Below are positions 2,435-34,491 of a DNA stretch of 64,000 nt, piece after piece. The notes under the pieces were generated by a model that did not search any database, was not told the origin of the DNA, and saw only the letters and a program-made list of their open reading frames with translations. Numbering within the stretch: the first letter of the stretch is position 1; each line of letters starts with the position of its first letter. The translations under genes and the position numbers were made by a program. The DNA comes from Bacilli bacterium (lineage in GTDB: Bacteria > Bacillota_I > Bacilli_A > RF39 > UBA660), in NCBI GenBank assembly GCA_017934595.1, contig JAGBJG010000008.1:723-64722 (forward strand). Direction: 5' to 3'.

Positions 2435-2481
2435 TAGAGGAGATGGTCCTTGCCCGCTGGGGCTGGGGTCATCTCTTTTTG
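2435..2481 (+). ncRNA. Candidate ~45-nt transcript: promoter plus GC-rich hairpin plus T5, antisense to the 3' end of the 2469..3002 gene
   Basis: TTGACA (2400..2405), 17-nt spacer, TAATAT (2423..2428). Then GAGATGGTCC (2440..2449) pairs with GGTCATCTC (2467..2475), including G.U pairs that work only on the + strand, with an inner GCCC/GGGC stem, followed by TTTTT. Confidence 0.3.
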
Positions 2482-3002
2482 TATGCTTTAATCAAAATAT
2501 TATCTTTTTTAATTATGATTTTGTTTATCCATATACGTCGGCATACCCCATCTTTAAAAATATTCTCTGTTTGCTTAATAATGTAGTGTATTGGTATTTT
2601 GCAATCGGTTATGTCAATTATAAAATTATGTGATTGCTTTTCACAGTTTTTGATTGCGTTATCAATCGCGCGCATTAAACTTTTTGAATCTTTTAATTCC
2701 TTTAAATCCCAATATTCTCCATTCCACCAATAATCAGCCGTTTTAATATTGTTTGGTGAATTTACACGTGGCTTCATATAAATTTCCCCACCAAAAGTAT
2801 TTTCAATCCAATTGGCTACTTCTAGTTCTTTTAAAGAATAGTCTAAAACAACGTTTTTGCTGCCGTCTACAATGTATATTTTATCTTTTGAAATATAAAA
2901 GTAACTATCTAACACTTTGTGACTATTAGGTGTAGCTTTTTCTATCAATTCTTTTGTAATATCGATGTAATTAATATTTATATCTAAAGTTTCTAATGCC
3001 AT
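2469..3002 (-). CDS. Hypothetical protein with a possible PD-(D/E)xK (restriction-endonuclease-fold) motif
   Basis: 177-aa ORF. The segment ...IKTADYWWNGEYWDLKELKD... fits a D-x(n)-D/E-x-K pattern. No family was confidently recognised. Confidence 0.55.
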   Translation of the reverse strand: MALETLDININYIDITKELIEKATPNSHKVLDSYFYISKDKIYIVDGSKNVVLDYSLKELEVANWIENTFGGEIYMKPRVNSPNNIKTADYWWNGEYWDLKELKDSKSLMRAIDNAIKNCEKQSHNFIIDITDCKIPIHYIIKQTENIFKDGVCRRIWINKIIIKKDNILIKAYKKR

Positions 3003-3641: not shown

Positions 3642-4610
3642 ATGGGCTTATTTGATAAATTTAAAAATCTATTTACTAAAGAGGAAAAAGCAGAAGTAGA
3701 AGTATATGAAAAAGGATTAGAAAAAACAAGAAATGAATTTGTTAATAAAATAAGTATCTTAAATAATAAATATAAAAAAGTATCTAATGAGTATTTTGAT
3801 GAATTAGAAGAAATATTTATTATGGCTGATATTGGTGTTAATACTGTGATGGATTTTATTGATAAGTTAAAGAAAAGAGTTAAATCTGAAAATATAGAAA
3901 ATAGTGAAGATTTAATGAATATCATCGTAGATGAAATGTTTATTATCTACGTTAATAACGATATTATTGTTAATAAAATTAATTATAATAATGATGGACC
4001 AACTGTTGTATTAATGGTAGGTGTTAATGGAGTTGGTAAAACTACTACAATTGGTAAACTTGCTAATAGAGAAATCAAAAATGGTAAGAAAGTATTATTA
4101 GTAGCAGGTGATACTTTTAGAGCTGGTGCAGTAGAACAACTAGTTGAATGGGGTAAAAGAATTGGTGCAGATGTAGTATACAAAAATGAAGCTGATCCAT
4201 CAAGTGTTATTTATGATGGTATTGATAAAGCAGTTAAAGAATCATATGATGTTGTATTTATAGATACAGCTGGAAGATTACAAAATAAAACTAATTTAAT
4301 GAATGAATTAGATAAAATCAATAGGGTTATAGGAAAACTTTTACCAGGGGCACCACATGAAACATTATTAGTTATAGATGGTACAACAGGTCAAAATGGT
4401 ATAAGTCAAGCTAAAAACTTTAAAGAAATTACTAATATTACTGGTATTGTATTAACTAAATTAGATGGTACTGCTAAAGGTGGTATAGTTTTAGCTATCA
4501 AAGAAAATGTAGGTATACCAGTTAAATTTATTGGTTTAGGTGAAAAGGCTGAAGACTTAAAAGTATTTGATATAGAAAAATATATCTATGGATTATTTAG
4601 GAGTGAATAG
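3642..4610 (+). CDS. ftsY: Signal recognition particle receptor FtsY
   Basis: SRP-GTPase motifs GVNGVGKTTTIGKLA, DTAGRL and TKLDGTAKGG. The start was moved to ATG 3642 (MGLFDKFK) behind an AGGTGAT RBS. Confidence 0.92.
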   Translation: MGLFDKFKNLFTKEEKAEVEVYEKGLEKTRNEFVNKISILNNKYKKVSNEYFDELEEIFIMADIGVNTVMDFIDKLKKRVKSENIENSEDLMNIIVDEMFIIYVNNDIIVNKINYNNDGPTVVLMVGVNGVGKTTTIGKLANREIKNGKKVLLVAGDTFRAGAVEQLVEWGKRIGADVVYKNEADPSSVIYDGIDKAVKESYDVVFIDTAGRLQNKTNLMNELDKINRVIGKLLPGAPHETLLVIDGTTGQNGISQAKNFKEITNITGIVLTKLDGTAKGGIVLAIKENVGIPVKFIGLGEKAEDLKVFDIEKYIYGLFRSE

Positions 4611-4611
4611 T

Positions 4612-4902
4612 ATGAAAGAAAGATTATATTTGATTACTCTATATGATTTATATGGTAATTTATTAACAGATAAACAACAAACATATTTTGAAGAATATTA
4701 TTTCAATAATTTATCTTTATCAGAAATGAGTGAATTATATGAAGTATCTAGAAGTGCAATAGGTAAATCCCTAAAAGAGATTGAATCTAAATTAAATAAT
4801 TATGAAGATAAATTAAAAATATATAATAAACTTAATAAGGTAAATAGACTTATTAAAGATGATTCATTAAAAACTAAGATAGAAGATATATTTAAAGATT
4901 AA
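4612..4902 (+). CDS. ylxM: YlxM/UPF0122 small HTH protein
   Basis: MKERLYLITLYDLYGNLLTDKQQTYFEEYYFNNLSLSEMSE..., in the typical position downstream of ftsY. ATG 4612 lies behind an AGGAG RBS. Confidence 0.8.
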   Translation: MKERLYLITLYDLYGNLLTDKQQTYFEEYYFNNLSLSEMSELYEVSRSAIGKSLKEIESKLNNYEDKLKIYNKLNKVNRLIKDDSLKTKIEDIFKD

Positions 4903-4924
4903 ATAAATATTATATAATGCATAT

Positions 4925-5032
4925 AGATGCATTAACTTGCATAAAATAAAAAGGAACACTTAATACGCTATGTTGAGTGTTGCCTGTAATTGGCAATCGC
5001 CTGTCTAAGCTTTAGTCAAGCGATGTTTTCTT
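4925..5032 (+). ncRNA. Candidate ~105-nt sRNA or leader, paralogous in its 5' ~45 nt to the sRNA candidate at 33575
   Basis: TATAAT at 4913..4918. The 5' module atatagatgcattaacttgcataaaataaaaagga closely matches 33571..33607. A hairpin AACACT/AGTGTT is present, and a 3' hairpin ATCGC (4996..5000)/GCGAT (5020..5024) is followed by GTTTTC. Confidence 0.3.
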
Positions 5033-5053
5033 ATATAATTGCTATAAATAACA

Positions 5054-5078
5054 AAGATATTAAATATATCTTTTTTTG
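5054..5078 (+). terminator. AT-rich hairpin plus T-run between the sRNA-like element and clpC
   Basis: aagatat-taaat-atatctt followed by TTTTT. Confidence 0.45.
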
Positions 5079-5142
5079 TTACCTGACATTAACCGACTTA
5101 TTATTTTTTGTATTTGGAATAGAATAATTATAGGTGATCAAA

Positions 5143-7449
5143 ATGTTTGGTAATTTTAATGAAGAAGCAAGAAAAGTATTAGTAGTAGCTAAAAAAGAAA
5201 TGAAGGAATTAAAACATCCTTATATAGGTAGTGAACATTTGATGTTAGCTATTTTAAAAGGTAATAATAGTATATCTAAAAAACTAAAATCCTACGATTT
5301 AACTTATGAAGTATTTAAAAAAGAACTATCTAATATAGTTGGTATAGGTAGTAGTGATACAAATGCTTTTTTGTATACTCCATTATTAAAAAGAGTAATT
5401 GAAAATGCTATTTTAGATAGTAAAGAAAATAATAATAGTGTTGTTACTATTGAACATTTATTTTCAGCTTTGTTAGAAGAAGGTGAAGGGGTCGCCATTA
5501 GGATAATGCTTGGAATGGGTATTGATCTAGAAAAATTATATGATGATTTTTCATATAAAATAGTTAATCATAATAAGAAAAACAAAAAGTTACTTGTTGA
5601 TGAGATGGGTGTAGATTTGACTTTGAAAGCAAGCAAAGGTGAATTAGATCCAGTTATCGGTAGAGATAAAGAAATACAAAGAGTAATAGAAATACTTTCT
5701 AGAAGAAGTAAAAATAATCCACTTTTAGTTGGAGATGCCGGAGTAGGTAAGACAGCTATAGTAGAAGGTTTATCATATATGATTACTAATTCAATGGTGC
5801 CTATTAATTTACAAAATAAAAGAATAATTAGTCTTGATATGGCTTCTTTAGTGGCAGGTACTAAATATAGAGGTGAATTTGAAGAAAGAATAAGAAATAT
5901 AATAGATGAAGTAGAAAATGAACCTGATATTATATTATTTATAGATGAGATTCATACTATAGTAGGTGCTGGTGGAGCAGAAGGGGCAATTGATGCATCT
6001 AATATATTTAAACCGGCTTTAGCTAGAGGTAGTATTAGAGTAATAGGCGCGACTACAATGGAAGAATATAAAAAATTCATTGAAGAAGATAAAGCTTTAT
6101 CTAGAAGATTCCAAAATATATTTATTAAGACGCCTGATAAGAAAACTGCTAAGAATATATTGATTGGGTTAAAACCTATATATGAAGATTATCATAATGT
6201 AATAATATCTGAAGATATAATTGATTTGATTATTAATTTATCAGATAAATATATTCACAATAGATATGAACCAGATAAATCTATAGATATTTTAGACGAA
6301 GTATGTGCTTATGTAAGTTTAAAAGAAACTAAAGAATCAAAAGAATATAATAAGATTAATATTAAATTAAAAGAAGTAACATCTATTAAAAATGAATATA
6401 TTTTAAAAAATGATTTTAAAGATGCTTTAACTTATAGAAAAGATGAAGAAGCATTACTTAGTAAATTAAACAATTTAGAATTAGATATATTAAAAAATAA
6501 AAATAGGAAAAAAGTTACTAAGAAAGATATTGCCTATATCTTTAATATGAAAACTAATATTCCTATATATGAAATAATGGATGATAATTTAAAAGTAATA
6601 AATAAAATAGAAAAAGATTTAAAAACTAATATTATAGGTGAAGATACTGCTGTTTTAGCTTGTATAGATGTTATTAAAAGAATTAAATTAGGATTTAAAG
6701 ATGATAATATGTGTTATTCAATGATGTTTGCTGGCCCAAGTGGAGTAGGCAAAACTAAATTAGCAACATTATTTTCTAAAGCTTTAGTAGGTGATAATTT
6801 AATTAGGCTTGATATGAGTGAATATAGTGATGCATCCAGTATAACTAAGATTATAGGTACATCGCCAGGATATGTTGGATATAAAGATTCGCATAATATT
6901 TTAGATGAAGTTAAAAATAAACCATTTTCAGTTATCTTATTAGATGAAGTTGAAAAAGCTCATTCAGATGTACTTAATTTATTTTTTCAAATATTAGAAG
7001 ATGGTAAAATCAAAAACTCATATGGTGAATATATATACTTTAATAATACAGTTATTATAATGACATCTAATATTGGATATAATGAATCCAATATAGGATT
7101 TAATAATAACTTTAATACAGATAGCAAGTTAAAAGATAATTTTTCTATTCCATTTATAAATAGAATTGATACTATAATATATTTTAATAAATTGAATGAA
7201 GATCATATTAGAAAAATAATAAATAATAGATTAAATATATTAAAAAAGAAATATAAGGATAAAAATATTCATTTAAAGATAGATAATAATGTAATAGAAG
7301 ATATTATAAATAAATCAGATTATATTAATTATGGAGCAAGAAAAATAGATAAGATAATCAAAGACGATATTGAAAATATTATTATAAATAGTGTTTTAAA
7401 TAGTGAATATAATATAGTTATTACTACAATTAATAAAGCATTAGCTTAA
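5143..7449 (+). CDS. clpC: ClpC-like class III stress AAA+ ATPase (two Clp_N repeats, two AAA modules)
   Basis: N-terminal Clp_N repeat (HPYIGSEHLMLAIL), Walker A GDAGVGKT and GPSGVGKT, and an IGF tripeptide in the second module. ATG 5143 lies behind an AGGTGAT RBS. Confidence 0.85.
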   Translation: MFGNFNEEARKVLVVAKKEMKELKHPYIGSEHLMLAILKGNNSISKKLKSYDLTYEVFKKELSNIVGIGSSDTNAFLYTPLLKRVIENAILDSKENNNSVVTIEHLFSALLEEGEGVAIRIMLGMGIDLEKLYDDFSYKIVNHNKKNKKLLVDEMGVDLTLKASKGELDPVIGRDKEIQRVIEILSRRSKNNPLLVGDAGVGKTAIVEGLSYMITNSMVPINLQNKRIISLDMASLVAGTKYRGEFEERIRNIIDEVENEPDIILFIDEIHTIVGAGGAEGAIDASNIFKPALARGSIRVIGATTMEEYKKFIEEDKALSRRFQNIFIKTPDKKTAKNILIGLKPIYEDYHNVIISEDIIDLIINLSDKYIHNRYEPDKSIDILDEVCAYVSLKETKESKEYNKINIKLKEVTSIKNEYILKNDFKDALTYRKDEEALLSKLNNLELDILKNKNRKKVTKKDIAYIFNMKTNIPIYEIMDDNLKVINKIEKDLKTNIIGEDTAVLACIDVIKRIKLGFKDDNMCYSMMFAGPSGVGKTKLATLFSKALVGDNLIRLDMSEYSDASSITKIIGTSPGYVGYKDSHNILDEVKNKPFSVILLDEVEKAHSDVLNLFFQILEDGKIKNSYGEYIYFNNTVIIMTSNIGYNESNIGFNNNFNTDSKLKDNFSIPFINRIDTIIYFNKLNEDHIRKIINNRLNILKKKYKDKNIHLKIDNNVIEDIINKSDYINYGARKIDKIIKDDIENIIINSVLNSEYNIVITTINKALA

Positions 7450-11133: not shown

Positions 11134-11156
11134 ATAGATTAATATATAATACATGT

Positions 11157-11372
11157 AATGACTTTGATGAAGAGGAGTATAGTATCGTAGTATAAAGAGA
11201 GGAATCGGTTGGTGTAAGATTCTTATGAAAGTACTAGAAGGTAGCTTCGGAGTTTTTTATCTAAGTAAATAGGATATTACGGTCACGCGTTATAGTGTTA
11301 AGGTCTAGAAATAGATAAATTAAGGTGGTACCACGACTAGTTCGTCCTTTATGGATGGCTAGTTTTTTTATT
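11157..11372 (+). promoter_or_regulatory. T-box leader (valS)
   Basis: Promoter TTTACA (11122) -17- TATAAT (11145). AGAGA-type stem I elements are present, and a GTA codon sits in the candidate specifier region (aaaGTAc). The T-box core AAGGTGGTACCACG lies at about 11322..11335. Antiterminator: AAGG/CCTT plus ACGA/TCGT. Terminator: ACTAGTTCGTCC...GGATGGCTAGT followed by T7. Confidence 0.8.
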
Positions 11373-31389: not shown

Positions 31390-31541
31390 TTGACTTAATA
31401 AATAAAATGAATTAAACTATTGTTATACATGTGATGACGGTGTGGAAAGCCCGAGCAATATACGAATGAGTGTTCTTATAGAATAAGTAAGGTGGGACAG
31501 TCCTTTGGGGCCCTTACAACTATAGGAACATTTTATTTTTT
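31390..31541 (+). promoter_or_regulatory. Promoter plus structured GC-enriched leader with a three-tier terminator hairpin; contains a T-box-antiterminator-like bulged helix (class uncertain)
   Basis: TTGACT (31390) -17- TAAACT (31413). P1 is GTTCTTATAG (31472..31481) paired with CTATAGGAAC (31520..31529). P2 is GTAAGG/CCTTAC. A 7-nt bulge reads TGGGACA. P3 is GTCC-ttt-GGGGC. The run ATTTTATTTTTT follows. AAGGTGGGACAGTCC resembles the T-box core. Confidence 0.5.
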
Positions 31542-31551
31542 GGAGGTTTTT

Positions 31552-32193
31552 ATGGAATATTTGGTAGATAAGGAGAAATCTATCGTAGTAAAAGATACTA
31601 ATAATGAAATTATATTTACTGATATAGATGCTTTAAAGAGTTTTCTACACAAGCTAATTTTGTCAAAACGTATTATTTCAGCCTCAGCTAATTCATATGA
31701 TGATAGTAAAAAAGGAATTAAGCATACAATATATGAGTATTCTACAGAAGATAGCAAGGTTAGATTTACTGAGAATATGAAAAATGCATATCCAGATTTA
31801 TTCATAGAAATAAATACAAAGAAAGTTCAGGATATGTATGCTGCAACTAAGATGGAAATTATGAATGGCAAAAGAGATGTATTTATTGATGTTGCTAAAT
31901 ATAGTGAGAGAAAAAATGTATGTAAAATAGTTGAAGATGATGTATTTAAATATATGTTGTTTACTGATAAATCTGGTAAATTAACAGAACAAGAAATGGC
32001 AAAATTAGATAAATTAGTAGAAACATATATAGATATAAGTGGTATAAATCCTAAATATAGATATCTTACTGATTTAGGAATTATAAAAAGTGAAGGAAGA
32101 AATTTTATTGGTAAAGGTGAGCCAATAGAATATATAGTAAATAGGAAGGTGTTAATGTATGAAAGAAAAAGTAACAATGGAAGAATTAGTTAA
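31552..32193 (+). CDS. Hypothetical soluble protein (213 aa) co-transcribed with and overlapping glyQS
   Basis: ATG 31552 lies behind GGAGGTTTTT. The ORF stays open for 213 codons in an AT-rich genome, and its end overlaps the glyQS start by 35 nt. Confidence 0.6.
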   Translation: MEYLVDKEKSIVVKDTNNEIIFTDIDALKSFLHKLILSKRIISASANSYDDSKKGIKHTIYEYSTEDSKVRFTENMKNAYPDLFIEINTKKVQDMYAATKMEIMNGKRDVFIDVAKYSERKNVCKIVEDDVFKYMLFTDKSGKLTEQEMAKLDKLVETYIDISGINPKYRYLTDLGIIKSEGRNFIGKGEPIEYIVNRKVLMYERKSNNGRIS

Positions 32194-33538
32194 CTACTGT
32201 AAACAATATGGCTTTATATTCCAAGGTAGTGAAATTTATGGAGGACTAGCTAATAGTTGGGATTACGGTCCTTTAGGAAGAGAACTTAAAAATAATATTA
32301 AAAATGCTTGGTGGAAGAAATTTATTGAAGAAGAAATTCATAACTATGGATTAGATTCTGCAATACTTATGAATCCAGAAGTATGGGTTGCGTCAGGTCA
32401 CGTTGCTTCATTCGCAGATCCATTAATCGACTGTAAGAAATGTAAATCAAGAGAAAGAGCAGATAAATTAATTGAAGAATTTACTGGTGGCGCTGAAACT
32501 GGTGATGGATGGGATAATGAAAAATTAGAAAGATTCATTGCAGATAATAAAGTACCATGTCCAAAATGTGGTGCATGTGATTTTACACCAATTAGAAAAT
32601 TCAATTTATTATTTGAAACTCATCAAGGTGTAACTGAAGATAATAAAAGTAAAGTATATCTAAGAGGTGAAACAGCTCAAGGTATATTTGTTAACTTTAA
32701 TAATGTACAAAGAGCCATGAGAGCTAAAGTACCATTTGGTATTGGTCAAATTGGTAAATCATTTAGAAATGAAATTACTCCAGGTAACTTTATCTTTAGA
32801 ACAAGAGAATTTGAACAAATGGAATTAGAATTCTTCTGTAAACCTGATACTGATTTAGAATGGTTTGCTTATTGGAAAAAGTATTGTCTAGATTTCTTAG
32901 AAACAATAGGTTTAACTAAAGAAAACTTAAGATATAGAGATCATTCTAAAGAAGAATTATCATTCTATAGTAAAGCTACTACAGATATTGAATATTTATT
33001 CCCAATGGGTTGGGGTGAATTATGGGGTATAGCAGATCGTACAGATTATGACTTATCAGTTCACATGAATCACTCAACTAAAGATTTAAGATATTTAGAT
33101 CCTGAAACTAATGAAAAATATTTACCATTTGTAATTGAACCATCTGTAGGTGTAGATAGACTTTTCTTAGCTACATTAACAGAGGCTTATACAAAAGAAA
33201 AATTAGAAAATGATGAAAGAGAAGTATTAAAAGTAAAACCTTTCTTGGCGCCTTATAAGGTTGCAGTATTACCATTACTTAAAAAAGTACATGGTGAAAA
33301 AGCTATGGAAGTATATAATATGTTAGCTAAACATTTTATGACAGCTTATGATGAAACTGCATCAATTGGTAAGAGATATAGAAGAGAAGATGCAATTGGT
33401 ACACCTTTCTGTGTTACTATAGATGATGAAACATTAAATAATAATATGGTAACTATAAGAGATAGAGATACTATGGAACAAGTTAATATTAAATTAGATG
33501 ATTTAGTATCTTATATTGAAGAAAGAATTAGTTTATAA
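32159..33538 (+). CDS. glyQS: Glycyl-tRNA synthetase (alpha2 single-chain type)
   Basis: GSEIYGGLANSWDYGPLG, FRNEITPGNFIFRTREFEQMELEFF, GVDRL. Confidence 0.96.
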   Translation: MKEKVTMEELVNYCKQYGFIFQGSEIYGGLANSWDYGPLGRELKNNIKNAWWKKFIEEEIHNYGLDSAILMNPEVWVASGHVASFADPLIDCKKCKSRERADKLIEEFTGGAETGDGWDNEKLERFIADNKVPCPKCGACDFTPIRKFNLLFETHQGVTEDNKSKVYLRGETAQGIFVNFNNVQRAMRAKVPFGIGQIGKSFRNEITPGNFIFRTREFEQMELEFFCKPDTDLEWFAYWKKYCLDFLETIGLTKENLRYRDHSKEELSFYSKATTDIEYLFPMGWGELWGIADRTDYDLSVHMNHSTKDLRYLDPETNEKYLPFVIEPSVGVDRLFLATLTEAYTKEKLENDEREVLKVKPFLAPYKVAVLPLLKKVHGEKAMEVYNMLAKHFMTAYDETASIGKRYRREDAIGTPFCVTIDDETLNNNMVTIRDRDTMEQVNIKLDDLVSYIEERISL

Positions 33539-33539
33539 G

Positions 33540-33568
33540 TTGACTTTAAAATTAAAAACATCTATAAT
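33540..33568 (+). promoter_or_regulatory. Near-consensus sigma-A promoter TTGACT-N17-TATAAT
   Basis: TTGACT at 33540..33545 and TATAAT at 33563..33568, starting 2 nt after the glyQS stop. Confidence 0.65.
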
Positions 33569-33574
33569 GTATAT

Positions 33575-33690
33575 AGATGCAAGAAATGCATAAAATTAAA
33601 AAGAGGAGTATTTGATTGCTACGTCAGATGCTTTACTCGATATAAGTCAAGAAAACACCAGAGCTAGTTGATTCTGGTGTTTTCGTTTGA
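33575..33690 (+). ncRNA. Candidate ~110-nt sRNA (type I antitoxin-like), convergent with the small toxin-like ORF
   Basis: It is driven by the promoter at 33540. It has a 5' hairpin ATGCA/TGCAT and ends at the 12-bp hairpin 33651..33684 followed by a T-rich tail. No convincing ORF is present. Confidence 0.45.
33651..33684. terminator. Bidirectional terminator hairpin shared by the convergent sRNA and the small ORF
   Basis: GAAAACACCAGA-gctagttgat-TCTGGTGTTTTC, a perfect 12-bp stem with U-rich ends in both orientations. Confidence 0.7.
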
Positions 33691-33691
33691 G

Positions 33692-33799
33692 TCACTTACT
33701 ACGATTATTCGTTATAAGTGCGAGTGTATAAAACACTATTACTAGTCCGAAGACTACTAATTCCACGTGGGACCCCCTTCTACGATAATTTCTTATCAT
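33692..33799 (-). CDS. 35-aa hydrophobic peptide, type I toxin-like (not in ORF track)
   Basis: GGAGG, a 9-nt spacer, then ATG (33799). Translation is MIRNYRRRGSHVELVVFGLVIVFYTLALITNNRSK: a basic N-terminus, one TM helix and a polar charged tail. The stop lies 8 nt before the shared terminator. Confidence 0.5.
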   Translation of the reverse strand: MIRNYRRRGSHVELVVFGLVIVFYTLALITNNRSK

Positions 33800-33924
33800 A
33801 AAAGATCACCTCCTAACAAATTAAGAAATATTTCGAAATTGGTTAAGAGTAAAACACCTGAACTATCAAATATCCTCTAGATAATTATATAACATTTGTT
33901 CGTATAAGTAAATGTTTTCAAGCA

Positions 33925-34491
33925 TTATTTTAGTATTTTATCTACAAGGCCATATCCTAAAGCTTCTTCTGCTGATAGATAGTGGTCTCTTTCTGTATCT
34001 AGTTCTATATCTTTAATATCTTTACCAGTATTATTACTTAATATATGATTTAATTTATCTTTTAATTTAAGAATATGGTTAGCTACAATATTAATATCTG
34101 TTGCTTGACCTTCTGCTCCTCCTAGGGGTTGATGTATCATGACTTCACCATTAGGTAAGATATATCTTTTACCTTTAGTACCACTAGATAATAATACTGC
34201 AGCCATAGAAGCAGCCATTCCAATACATATAGTTGATACATCACTTTTGATAAAGTTCATTGTGTCATATATAGCCATACCAGAAGTAATAACTCCACCT
34301 GGAGAATTAATATAAATACTAATATCATCATGATTAAGTGAATCTAAATATAAAAGCATCGCGACAACATTATTAGCTAATGTATCATCAATTTCACCAC
34401 TTAAAATAATAATTCTATCTTTTAATAACCTTGAATATATATCATAAATACGTTCACCATTACTACTTCTTTCAATAATAGTTGGAATCAT
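33925..34491 (-). CDS. clpP: ATP-dependent Clp protease proteolytic subunit
   Basis: [11 protein letters not shown] (active-site Ser), HQPLGG (His); 188 aa. Confidence 0.96.

Follow-up and report, generated by a model that had tools for sequence, protein, structure and literature searches.

A predicted type I toxin-antitoxin-like module between glyQS and clpP in an uncultured gut Bacilli genome

Organization of the glyQS-clpP spacer

We have analysed a 64,000-nucleotide stretch of DNA from an uncultured member of the Bacilli (assembly GCA_017934595.1, contig JAGBJG010000008.1), referred to below as the window. Its glyQS and clpP genes converge on a gap of 386 bp (33539-33924), within which the gene for a predicted small RNA (sRNA) on the plus strand faces a short open reading frame (ORF) on the minus strand. 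The analysis makes it likely that this spacer is a self-contained type I toxin-antitoxin (TA)-like module, one of a family present in uncultured low-GC gut Bacilli, with the ORF as putative toxin gene and the sRNA as putative antitoxin. The features of the locus are as follows.

32159..33538, plus strand: GlyQS gene, assigned by Pfam families
33540..33568, plus strand: promoter of the sRNA (putative antitoxin), TTGACT-17-TATAAT, 11/12 match to consensus and the best in a 1.7-kb scan
33575..33692, plus strand: predicted sRNA of ~118 nt, ending at the stop codon of the peptide gene (both ends predicted)
33577-33591, plus strand: 5' hairpin of the sRNA, from folding
33592-33603, plus strand: A-rich linker of the sRNA, the complement of the U tract of the mRNA terminator
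~33603-33638, plus strand: sRNA hairpin 2, from folding and the family structure
33588..33638, minus strand: probable real 3' end of the peptide mRNA, a hairpin at 33638..33603 complementary to sRNA hairpin 2 and, after it, CUCUUUUUAAUUUUAU, from family comparison
33651..33684, both strands: perfect 12-bp hairpin with a 10-nt loop, arms 33651-33662 and 33673-33684, from sequence and folding
33680-33689, plus strand: T tract of the sRNA terminator, from the sequence
33692..33799, minus strand: peptide ORF (putative toxin) MIRNYRRRGSHVELVVFGLVIVFYTLALITNNRSK, 35 codons, stop TGA at 33694..33692, read from the sequence
33809..33813, minus strand: Shine-Dalgarno (SD) sequence GGAGG, with a 9-nt spacer to the ATG at 33799, read from the sequence
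33842..33850, minus strand: anti-SD segment ACUCUUAAC, predicted by folding to pair with GUUAGGAG(G)
33847..33877, minus strand: mRNA 5' end GAGGAUAUUUGAUAGUUCAGGUGUUUUACUC, complementary to the mRNA's own 3' region (RNAduplex) and resembling sRNA hairpin 2
33884..33912, minus strand: promoter of the peptide gene, TTTACT-17-TATAAT, 10/12 match in the promoter scan
33902..33889, minus strand: GAAC-N4-GTTC-like box CGAACAAATGTTAT in the spacer between the -35 and -10 boxes of the toxin promoter, from a box search
33925..34491, minus strand: ClpP gene, assigned by Pfam families

Much of this organization had been proposed in an initial annotation. The GGAGG, its 9-nt spacer and the ATG opening a 35-codon ORF (33799..33692) are all read directly from the minus strand, and MIRNYRRRGSHVELVVFGLVIVFYTLALITNNRSK has the basic N-terminus, single transmembrane (TM) helix and polar tail ascribed to it. 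The perfect 12-bp hairpin does lie 8 nt past the end of the ORF, and the plus-strand promoter was found where it had been placed. A minus-strand promoter had also been suggested; the same element is present, but it reads TTTACT-17-TATAAT at 33912..33884 and not TTACTT-16-TATAAT. The predicted start of the peptide mRNA near 33877 gives a 5' untranslated region (UTR) of ~78 nt to the AUG and ~63 nt to the SD sequence, in place of the ~90 nt before the SD sequence that had been estimated. The two RNAs had been expected to be complementary at their 3' ends. Convergent overlap is indeed found in the window and in the family, but it probably runs past the shared hairpin for ~100 nt.

The extent of the overlap depends on where the peptide mRNA ends. 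The 12-bp hairpin is the predicted terminator of the sRNA, and probably that of glyQS too. Read on the minus strand it begins 8 nt past the stop codon of the peptide gene, within the 3' UTR of its mRNA, and has just a weak T tail. The peptide mRNA probably ends instead at a second, better terminator past the shared hairpin, and the overlap of the two RNAs would then probably span 33590-33692 (~100 nt) rather than ~40 nt.

Both predicted RNAs fold far better than shuffled sequence, with z = -4.7 for the sRNA and z = -6.9 for the peptide mRNA. Of the two promoters in the window spacer, that of the sRNA is the nearer to consensus (11/12, against 10/12 for that of the toxin), and a like contrast is seen by eye, unscored, in the other promoters of the family. 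Promoter-like hexamers number 14 in the scanned region, against 12.3 expected from shuffles. A small plus-strand ORF within the sRNA (TTG start, 19 aa, MIATSDALLDISQENTRAS) was considered and dropped, as other modules do not conserve it.

The plus-strand RNA belongs to a structured family

The promoter and 5' part of the sRNA recur within the window at 4891-4953, with 81% identity over 64 nt. The two window copies and a related locus (L006, described below) have in common a motif comprising TATAATGYATWTAG, 10-18 nt, CATAAAAT, 0-1 nt and AAAAA. Scanning metagenome contigs for this motif gave 21 loci, one of which (L093) alone has three tandem matches; the same scan of viral contigs gave 0 matches. 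In total there are ~25 copies of the sRNA family, from gut and rumen metagenomes and metagenome-assembled genomes (MAGs). The promoter and the TATAATGYATWTAG context are conserved in the 21 motif loci and L006, and are diverged yet recognisable in L033, a rabbit-gut Bacilli MAG. The members have a common layout in which a TTGAC/TTGAAA-17-TATAAT promoter is followed by a hairpin at the extreme 5' end, the linker AAAAUAAAAAAGGA, a second hairpin and a terminator.

In an alignment of 21 sequences the three helices are 96.4% paired. Shuffling the 3' letters lowers this figure to 87.6%, and sliding the partners lowers it to ~30%. Both-sided (compensatory) changes occur in 11 of the 19 pairs, and the terminator helix is among those that co-vary. 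The members share descent, so these counts are of non-independent events. A covariance model recovered copies outside its training set, namely a fourth copy in L093 and the copy in L033 (80.8 bits), which lies directly downstream of glyQS. A further model (R2) was built without the window sequences. It matched 4925-5045 with 83.9 bits (E = 2e-11) and, as the second-best match in the window, 33575-33702 over the full length with 40.1 bits (E = 2.8e-4); all further window matches have E > 2. These E-values are rough, the calibration having been short. By sequence and predicted structure the plus-strand RNA of the spacer is therefore a divergent but recognisable member of a structured sRNA family. 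Rfam contains no family at the glyQS-clpP locus, either under its gathering thresholds or with E relaxed to 10, nor at the second window copy or at four family loci (E up to 1).

An ATGCA..TGCAT palindrome near clpC and clpP was considered as a protein operator of a Clp regulon and rejected. Its spacing varies from 4 to 6 nt, its arms change jointly (TGAAA/TTTCA, GAAGA/TCTTC and others), and most copies are away from clp genes.

Facing peptide genes are conserved and coding

A convergent ATG-initiated ORF preceded by an SD sequence, at a fixed offset from the sRNA, is carried by 20 distinct modules, 19 from the motif scan plus L033; the module of L091 duplicates that of the window. The ORFs encode 24-36 aa, and in all of them the SD sequence is 7-11 nt upstream of the ATG. 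A basic N-terminus of the MNKKDF, MKKDN or MKKRNF type is followed by a TM helix with a maximal Kyte-Doolittle 15-residue mean (KD15) of 2.8-4.2, as exemplified by MNKKDFLISSLLIIIILLIILLFIVLL, MKKDNIFFKLIIIILLAIVVLLVI and MKKRNFIIKVLNRIIIILIIIVVILFVIKTSIYPLG. Measured from the sRNA -10 box, the stop codon comes ~85-130 nt further downstream, the 24- and 27-aa groups having it near 120 nt, and in the modules inspected for this (the window, L006 and L104) it is placed at the sRNA terminator. The background of such ORFs is low: both strands of 486 kb of related DNA contain 3 that have an ATG, 20-40 aa, an SD sequence and a KD15 of at least 2.8.

The ratio of the proportions of non-synonymous and synonymous differences (pN/pS) is 0.26 in the 27-aa group (45 pairs) and 0.43 in the 24-aa group, with pS > 0.5. 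By this measure the family ORFs are coding and under purifying selection. They have escaped annotation, and an exact look-up in a collection of 15 billion proteins found neither MIRNYRRRGSHVELVVFGLVIVFYTLALITNNRSK nor 9 of its relatives. Among 1.84 billion representative proteins, phmmer matched the 35-aa peptide to a single one, P0001, and to no real relative; P0001 is a repetitive 220-aa protein, and we judged the likeness to be a chance hydrophobic similarity.

Four copies of the sRNA with enough flank lack a facing ORF (site B of the window, L100, the fourth copy of L093, termed L093d, and L099), although the flank of L099 is just 173 nt and so is uninformative on this point. The orphan copy of the window is the following.

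4913..5045, plus strand: orphan sRNA copy (site B), -10 box 4913-4918, RNA 4925-5045, 83.9 bits with R2, of the majority 'GGAACAC' type

Site B lies between a ylxM-like ORF and the gene for a ClpC-type ATPase (5134..7449). Its promoter and terminator are intact and there is no facing peptide ORF, yet ~20 nt resembling a toxin 3' end remain. The orphan sRNA copies look like decayed modules that have kept the sRNA. On the minus strand of L093 (2800-4230), beside a MurG gene, a tandem array packs four sRNA genes and three peptide genes of two subtypes into 1.4 kb, and another sRNA promoter replaces the promoter region of one toxin.

Predicted silencing and 5'-3' closure of the peptide mRNA

The peptide mRNAs appear to be folded so as to restrict their translation. 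Hairpins that would sequester the SD sequence, of the CCUCC-GAAA-GGAGG type, are present in the 5' UTRs of nearly all modules, and in the window the AUG is also inside a predicted 13-bp hairpin. The toxin promoter is itself conserved, as T(T/A)TACACGAACA...TTCGTG(T/G)TATAAT, the version in the window being TTTACTTATACGAACAAATGTTATATAAT.

The first ~30 nt of each mRNA resemble the hairpin-2 region of the cognate sRNA. As the sRNA is encoded by the opposite strand, the 5' end of each mRNA is thereby complementary to the 3' region of the same mRNA. The U tract of the mRNA is likewise the complement of the A-rich linker of the sRNA, and this layout is the same in every family member. In the window the 3' partner of the closure is the segment 33588..33638, and the minimum free energy structure of the 290-nt transcript (33877 to 33588) pairs the 5' end with the 3' end. 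The RNAduplex energy of the two segments is -41.5 kcal/mol, the strongest among the modules, compared with -15 to -27 kcal/mol when the same 5' end is paired with the 3' segments of other modules.

Over the family the cognate 5'/3' duplexes average -30.8 kcal/mol. The controls are considerably weaker, at -21.3 kcal/mol for non-cognate (off-diagonal) pairs, -21.8 kcal/mol for permuted partners and -14.2 kcal/mol for shuffled 3' segments, and 0 of 20000 permutations reached the observed cognate mean. These predicted energies show that the 5'-3' complementarity co-evolves within modules. Complementary 5' repeats of the par type were also looked for, and none was found. The repeat is inverted, and accounts instead for the 5'-3' closure.

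Distribution of the module at the glyQS-clpP junction

The glyQS-clpP junction varies among close relatives, where it may hold a bare hairpin, a TA-like module or extra genes. In L005, with a GlyQS 98% identical to that of the window, the spacer is 21 nt (4381-4401) with one bidirectional hairpin serving both genes and no module; the junction of L113 is 33 nt (3890-3922), again without the module. L007 and L008 have three extra genes at the junction (4379-6100), one of the NT5C family, and in L003 and L004 a different convergent gene comes right after an identical ClpP (L003 1296-1449). L006, by contrast with these, has a 387-bp spacer of window-like architecture beside a GlyQS that is 90% identical. 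TTGACT-17-TATAAT comes directly after glyQS, and the opposite strand has TTTACA-17-TATAAT, an anti-SD/SD pair and the ORF MKRENYFLKLIIVILLAIVILLVI. The variability of the junction and the match with L006 indicate that the spacer is a unit of insertion and deletion and not ordinary intergenic DNA.

The module occupies the same glyQS-clpP site in L006, L104 and L033. L100 (2419-2620) and L104 (4230-4544) have GlyQS and ClpP respectively 63% and 84% identical to those of the window, and their loci are near-identical to each other except that L100 has cleanly lost the peptide ORF together with its promoter. The sRNA gene of L100 abuts the clpP terminator and provides a natural 'antitoxin-only' allele. 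Other copies of the family are neighbours of genes for EngA, ParC/GyrA, L11, MurG, an M16 peptidase and MerR. The labels of the GlyQS relatives include 'Bacilli bacterium', 'Firmicutes bacterium CAG:582' and 'Mycoplasma sp. CAG:877/956', and their sources are rumen and gut metagenomes. Such labels probably fall within the GTDB order RF39.

In the window strain glyQS and clpP both lack a dedicated terminator. The -35 box of the sRNA promoter begins 1 nt past the glyQS stop codon, so that read-through from glyQS would also include the antitoxin sequence.

A candidate LexA-type box in the toxin promoter

Of 19 modules, 9 have between the -35 and -10 boxes of the toxin promoter a GAAC-N4-GTTC-like box such as that of the window; the background frequency of the box is 0.02 per 125 nt. 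The promoters that bear it are those of the window, L006, L092, L093, L097, L102, L104 and L105. The signal is at the family level; in the window alone the box is not significant, with 3 matches against 2.25 expected. A Gram-positive LexA/Cheo-type box at this position raises the possibility of SOS control of the toxin, and we consider it a candidate operator. No LexA gene was found among ten window ORFs of ~150-325 aa that were searched for it.

Comparison with known type I systems

At the sequence level the module has the two components of the type I class, a gene with translation signals for a hydrophobic peptide of <60 aa and an adjacent antisense RNA gene. The initial annotation had likened it to the Fst, TxpA and BsrG systems and proposed a search with profiles of type I toxin peptides. 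Such a search with the window peptide and 10 family peptides gave no match in Pfam or NCBIfam at E up to 10, including to Fst_toxin and HOK_GEF. The type I TA-like reading gains from the existence of the family, the covariation and the facing peptide ORFs, but no homology of the peptide to Fst, TxpA or BsrG is detectable. By every sequence test the module is not a member of the Fst, TxpA, BsrG or Hok groups. The computational evidence gives good support to a previously unannotated family, new within the type I TA-like kind.

The closest likeness in gene arrangement is to systems of Gram-positive bacteria, where placement of the antisense RNA on the 3' side of the toxin gene is general among type I families (T1TAdb paper, PMC8594479). 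As in the window, TxpA/RatA and BsrG/SR4 of Bacillus subtilis (and also BsrE/SR5 and YonT/SR6) have convergent genes and an antisense RNA overlapping the 3' end of the toxin mRNA. TxpA/RatA and BsrG/SR4 further resemble it in having a small single-TM peptide and a structured 5' UTR with a partly sequestered SD sequence, and decay triggered by the RNA duplex would be the likely common outcome. They differ in that their peptides are not homologous to those of the window family, whose RNA also matches nothing in Rfam. Most peptides of the window family end in the TM helix and have their charges N-terminal, unlike the TxpA/BsrG group. The overlap in the window family stops at the stop codon and does not continue into the ORF, and a co-varying 5'-3' closure is built in. 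The TxpA/BsrG-type loci of B. subtilis are prophage-borne, whereas modules of the window family are between housekeeping genes and the motif is in no viral contig.

Fst/RNAI-RNAII (par of pAD1) and SprA1/SprA1as share with the window convergent RNAs, a bidirectional terminator, a hydrophobic peptide of ~30 aa and a Firmicute host. In par, direct DNA repeats give complementary 5' segments that block translation. The repeat in the window is inverted, so the sRNA and the mRNA 5' end share sequence, and the sRNA has GGAG and not CCUCC. In Fst, too, the TM helix is N-terminal and the charges are in a C-terminal tail, the reverse of the polarity in the window family, and there is no Fst_toxin match. 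The RNA interaction of par lies outside the overlap (T1TAdb paper, PMC8594479).

A likeness of a different kind exists with Hok/Sok of R1 and AapA1/IsoA1 of Helicobacter pylori, with which the window family has in common a predicted long-distance 5'-3' fold-back and SD sequestration. A fold-back lock between the 5' and 3' ends of the full-length toxin mRNA is established for hok and AapA1. In those systems, however, the antisense RNA binds the mRNA at its 5' or translation-initiation region, and trimming at the 3' end is what activates the mRNA, whereas the antisense RNA of the window family covers the 3' closure element itself. The window family has no leader ORF such as mok, and there is no sequence homology with the Hok and AapA1 systems, whose hosts are Gram-negative. 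The SOS-controlled TisB/IstR-1, DinQ/AgrB and SymE/SymR systems of E. coli resemble the window family in the candidate LexA-type operator of the toxin promoter; their gene organization is different.

Interpretation and alternative explanations

The module would operate as follows. From the minus strand would come an mRNA of ~290 nt, highly structured and encoding a 35-aa single-TM peptide, presumed to be a membrane-damaging toxin, whose translation would be held down by three predicted features, the anti-SD/SD hairpin, the AUG hairpin and the long-range 5'-3' pairing. The plus strand would give an sRNA of ~118 nt from a stronger, near-consensus promoter. This RNA would be the exact antisense of the toxin mRNA over its final ~100 nt, from the terminator to the stop codon, a region that includes the 3' partner of the closure; in sequence the sRNA thus mimics the 5' end of the mRNA. 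By analogy with txpA/RatA and bsrG/SR4, it would pair with the 3' region of the mRNA and displace the 5' end, and the resulting duplex would trigger cleavage of the RNase III type and decay. While the sRNA is present no peptide would be made; in its absence the stable closed mRNA would eventually yield a membrane-active peptide. Retention of the sRNA at sites that have lost the toxin half lends indirect support to its preventing toxin synthesis. We infer the transcript ends, the toxicity, its neutralisation by the sRNA, the nuclease and the direction of regulation from the known systems.

Several observations weigh against this interpretation. The sRNA of the spacer is a divergent member of its family at 40 bits (33575-33702), and the peptide, with a KD15 of 2.81, is less hydrophobic than the rest and has a different N-terminus. 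Only one other sequence of the window's peptide subtype is known, that of L091, which differs by R7K in the peptide and by a change of the toxin -10 box from TATAAT to TACAAT (33887), with zero changes in the sRNA gene. No second species with this subtype was found, and the closest GlyQS relatives (L005, L007-L010 and L112-L115) are without the module. Purifying selection consequently holds for the family and not for this particular ORF, since its subtype comprises just two near-identical sequences. No terminator separates clpP from the peptide gene in the window, although the clpP terminator is retained in L006 and L104. The ORF could therefore be read from a clpP read-through transcript, as part of a joint clpP-toxin RNA. 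A search for RNase III in ten window ORFs of ~150-325 aa was negative. Binding of the sRNA at the mRNA 3' end would open the closure and could in principle activate translation. Lastly, the orphan sRNAs keep intact promoters, and may have a function of their own.

The same arrangement might instead tune, through a cis-antisense sRNA, the level of a small membrane protein without toxic action. Such a protein would be a harmless accessory subunit or regulator, comparable to other bacterial TM peptides of <50 aa. Conserved ORFs and purifying selection indicate coding and are not proof of toxicity, and the window peptide is just moderately hydrophobic with no homology to proven toxins. But layered silencing of translation by an SD hairpin, an AUG hairpin and a closure is typical of type I TA and would be unusual for an accessory membrane peptide. 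The tandem arrays, the presence or absence of the module among near-identical strains, the repeated loss of the peptide half while the sRNA is kept and the lack of a fixed partner gene nearby also argue against a benign protein, and we find this explanation unlikely. It is more improbable still that the module's main function resides in the sRNA, which would act in trans or as a leader, with for example a link to Clp proteolysis, and that the facing ORF is secondary. One copy is upstream of clpC and one beside clpP, the orphans (window 4925-5045, L100 and L093d) keep promoter and structure, and nowhere is the module better conserved than in the sRNA's 5' half. Yet most copies adjoin unrelated genes, and conservation of the A-rich linker is explained by its being the complement of the mRNA terminator U tract. 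The variable hairpin 2 and terminator co-vary with the 5' end and 3' UTR of the cognate mRNA, as expected if that is the target, and the toxin 3'-end remnant makes site B look decayed.

The simplest alternative would be a chance ORF in a long spacer, with the hairpin acting as a bidirectional terminator for glyQS and clpP and the promoters being AT-rich look-alikes. A GC content of 26% would favour such look-alikes, and promoter-like hexamers are no commoner than in shuffled sequence (14 versus 12.3). Moreover neither glyQS nor clpP has its own terminator, and the hairpin of L005 does serve both. Against this, the arrangement recurs in ~20 independent modules at many loci; promoters are conserved on either strand, the RNAs covary and the substitutions are of the coding type. 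The background is just 3 such ORFs in 486 kb. We regard a chance origin as scarcely credible. The TA-like module thus remains our preferred interpretation. It could be extended to a lineage-wide family with a mechanism new among the known families, in which an sRNA mimic in one step unlocks the closure and forms a ~100-bp decay duplex, a LexA-like operator in the promoter spacer renders the toxin SOS-inducible in a lineage of Gram-positive descent, and the orphans, for example that upstream of clpC, are retained as anti-addiction elements. We offer this extension tentatively, and as a whole consider it doubtful.

Type I TA systems are nearly invisible to annotation, and none is described for these uncultured reduced-genome gut Bacilli in the literature searched. 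A full-text search returned no paper pairing RF39 with toxin-antitoxin, and the papers on Mollicutes and type I TA concern other subjects, to judge by their titles and abstracts. The family would combine antisense control of the Bacillus style, with overlap at the 3' end, with a fold-back lock of the hok/AapA1 style, and its antisense RNA is placed exactly on the lock. This would make it well suited to studying the coupling between the unlocking of a closed mRNA and its decay or translation, for which more than 20 natural variants of both RNAs and the peptide provide a ready covariation dataset. The covariance model and peptide pattern can be used to annotate MAG loci, the patterns of presence, absence and orphan copies could act as strain-level markers, and the single-TM peptides of 24-36 aa are candidate membrane-active toxins.

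Genetic code and other features of the window

The peptide ORF ends with TGA, and genetic code 4, in which TGA is read through, was considered and dropped. TGA is a true stop in this genome, terminating 10 of 46 long ORFs. The share of TGG among codons in the window is normal at 0.64%, and table-11 ORFs of at least 200 aa cover 85% of the window. The GC content of the window is 26%.

No T-box is detectable at glyQS, and the gene overlaps a preceding lineage-specific ORF (31492..32193). The sole Rfam match of the window at gathering score is a T-box leader on the plus strand at 11155-11352 (109 bits), upstream of an 841-aa ORF. Elsewhere, a stand-alone 177-aa ORF on the minus strand (2469..3002) contains a CdiA_C domain (PF18451, E = 1.2e-15), and may be the C-terminal module of a polymorphic toxin or an orphan toxin cassette.

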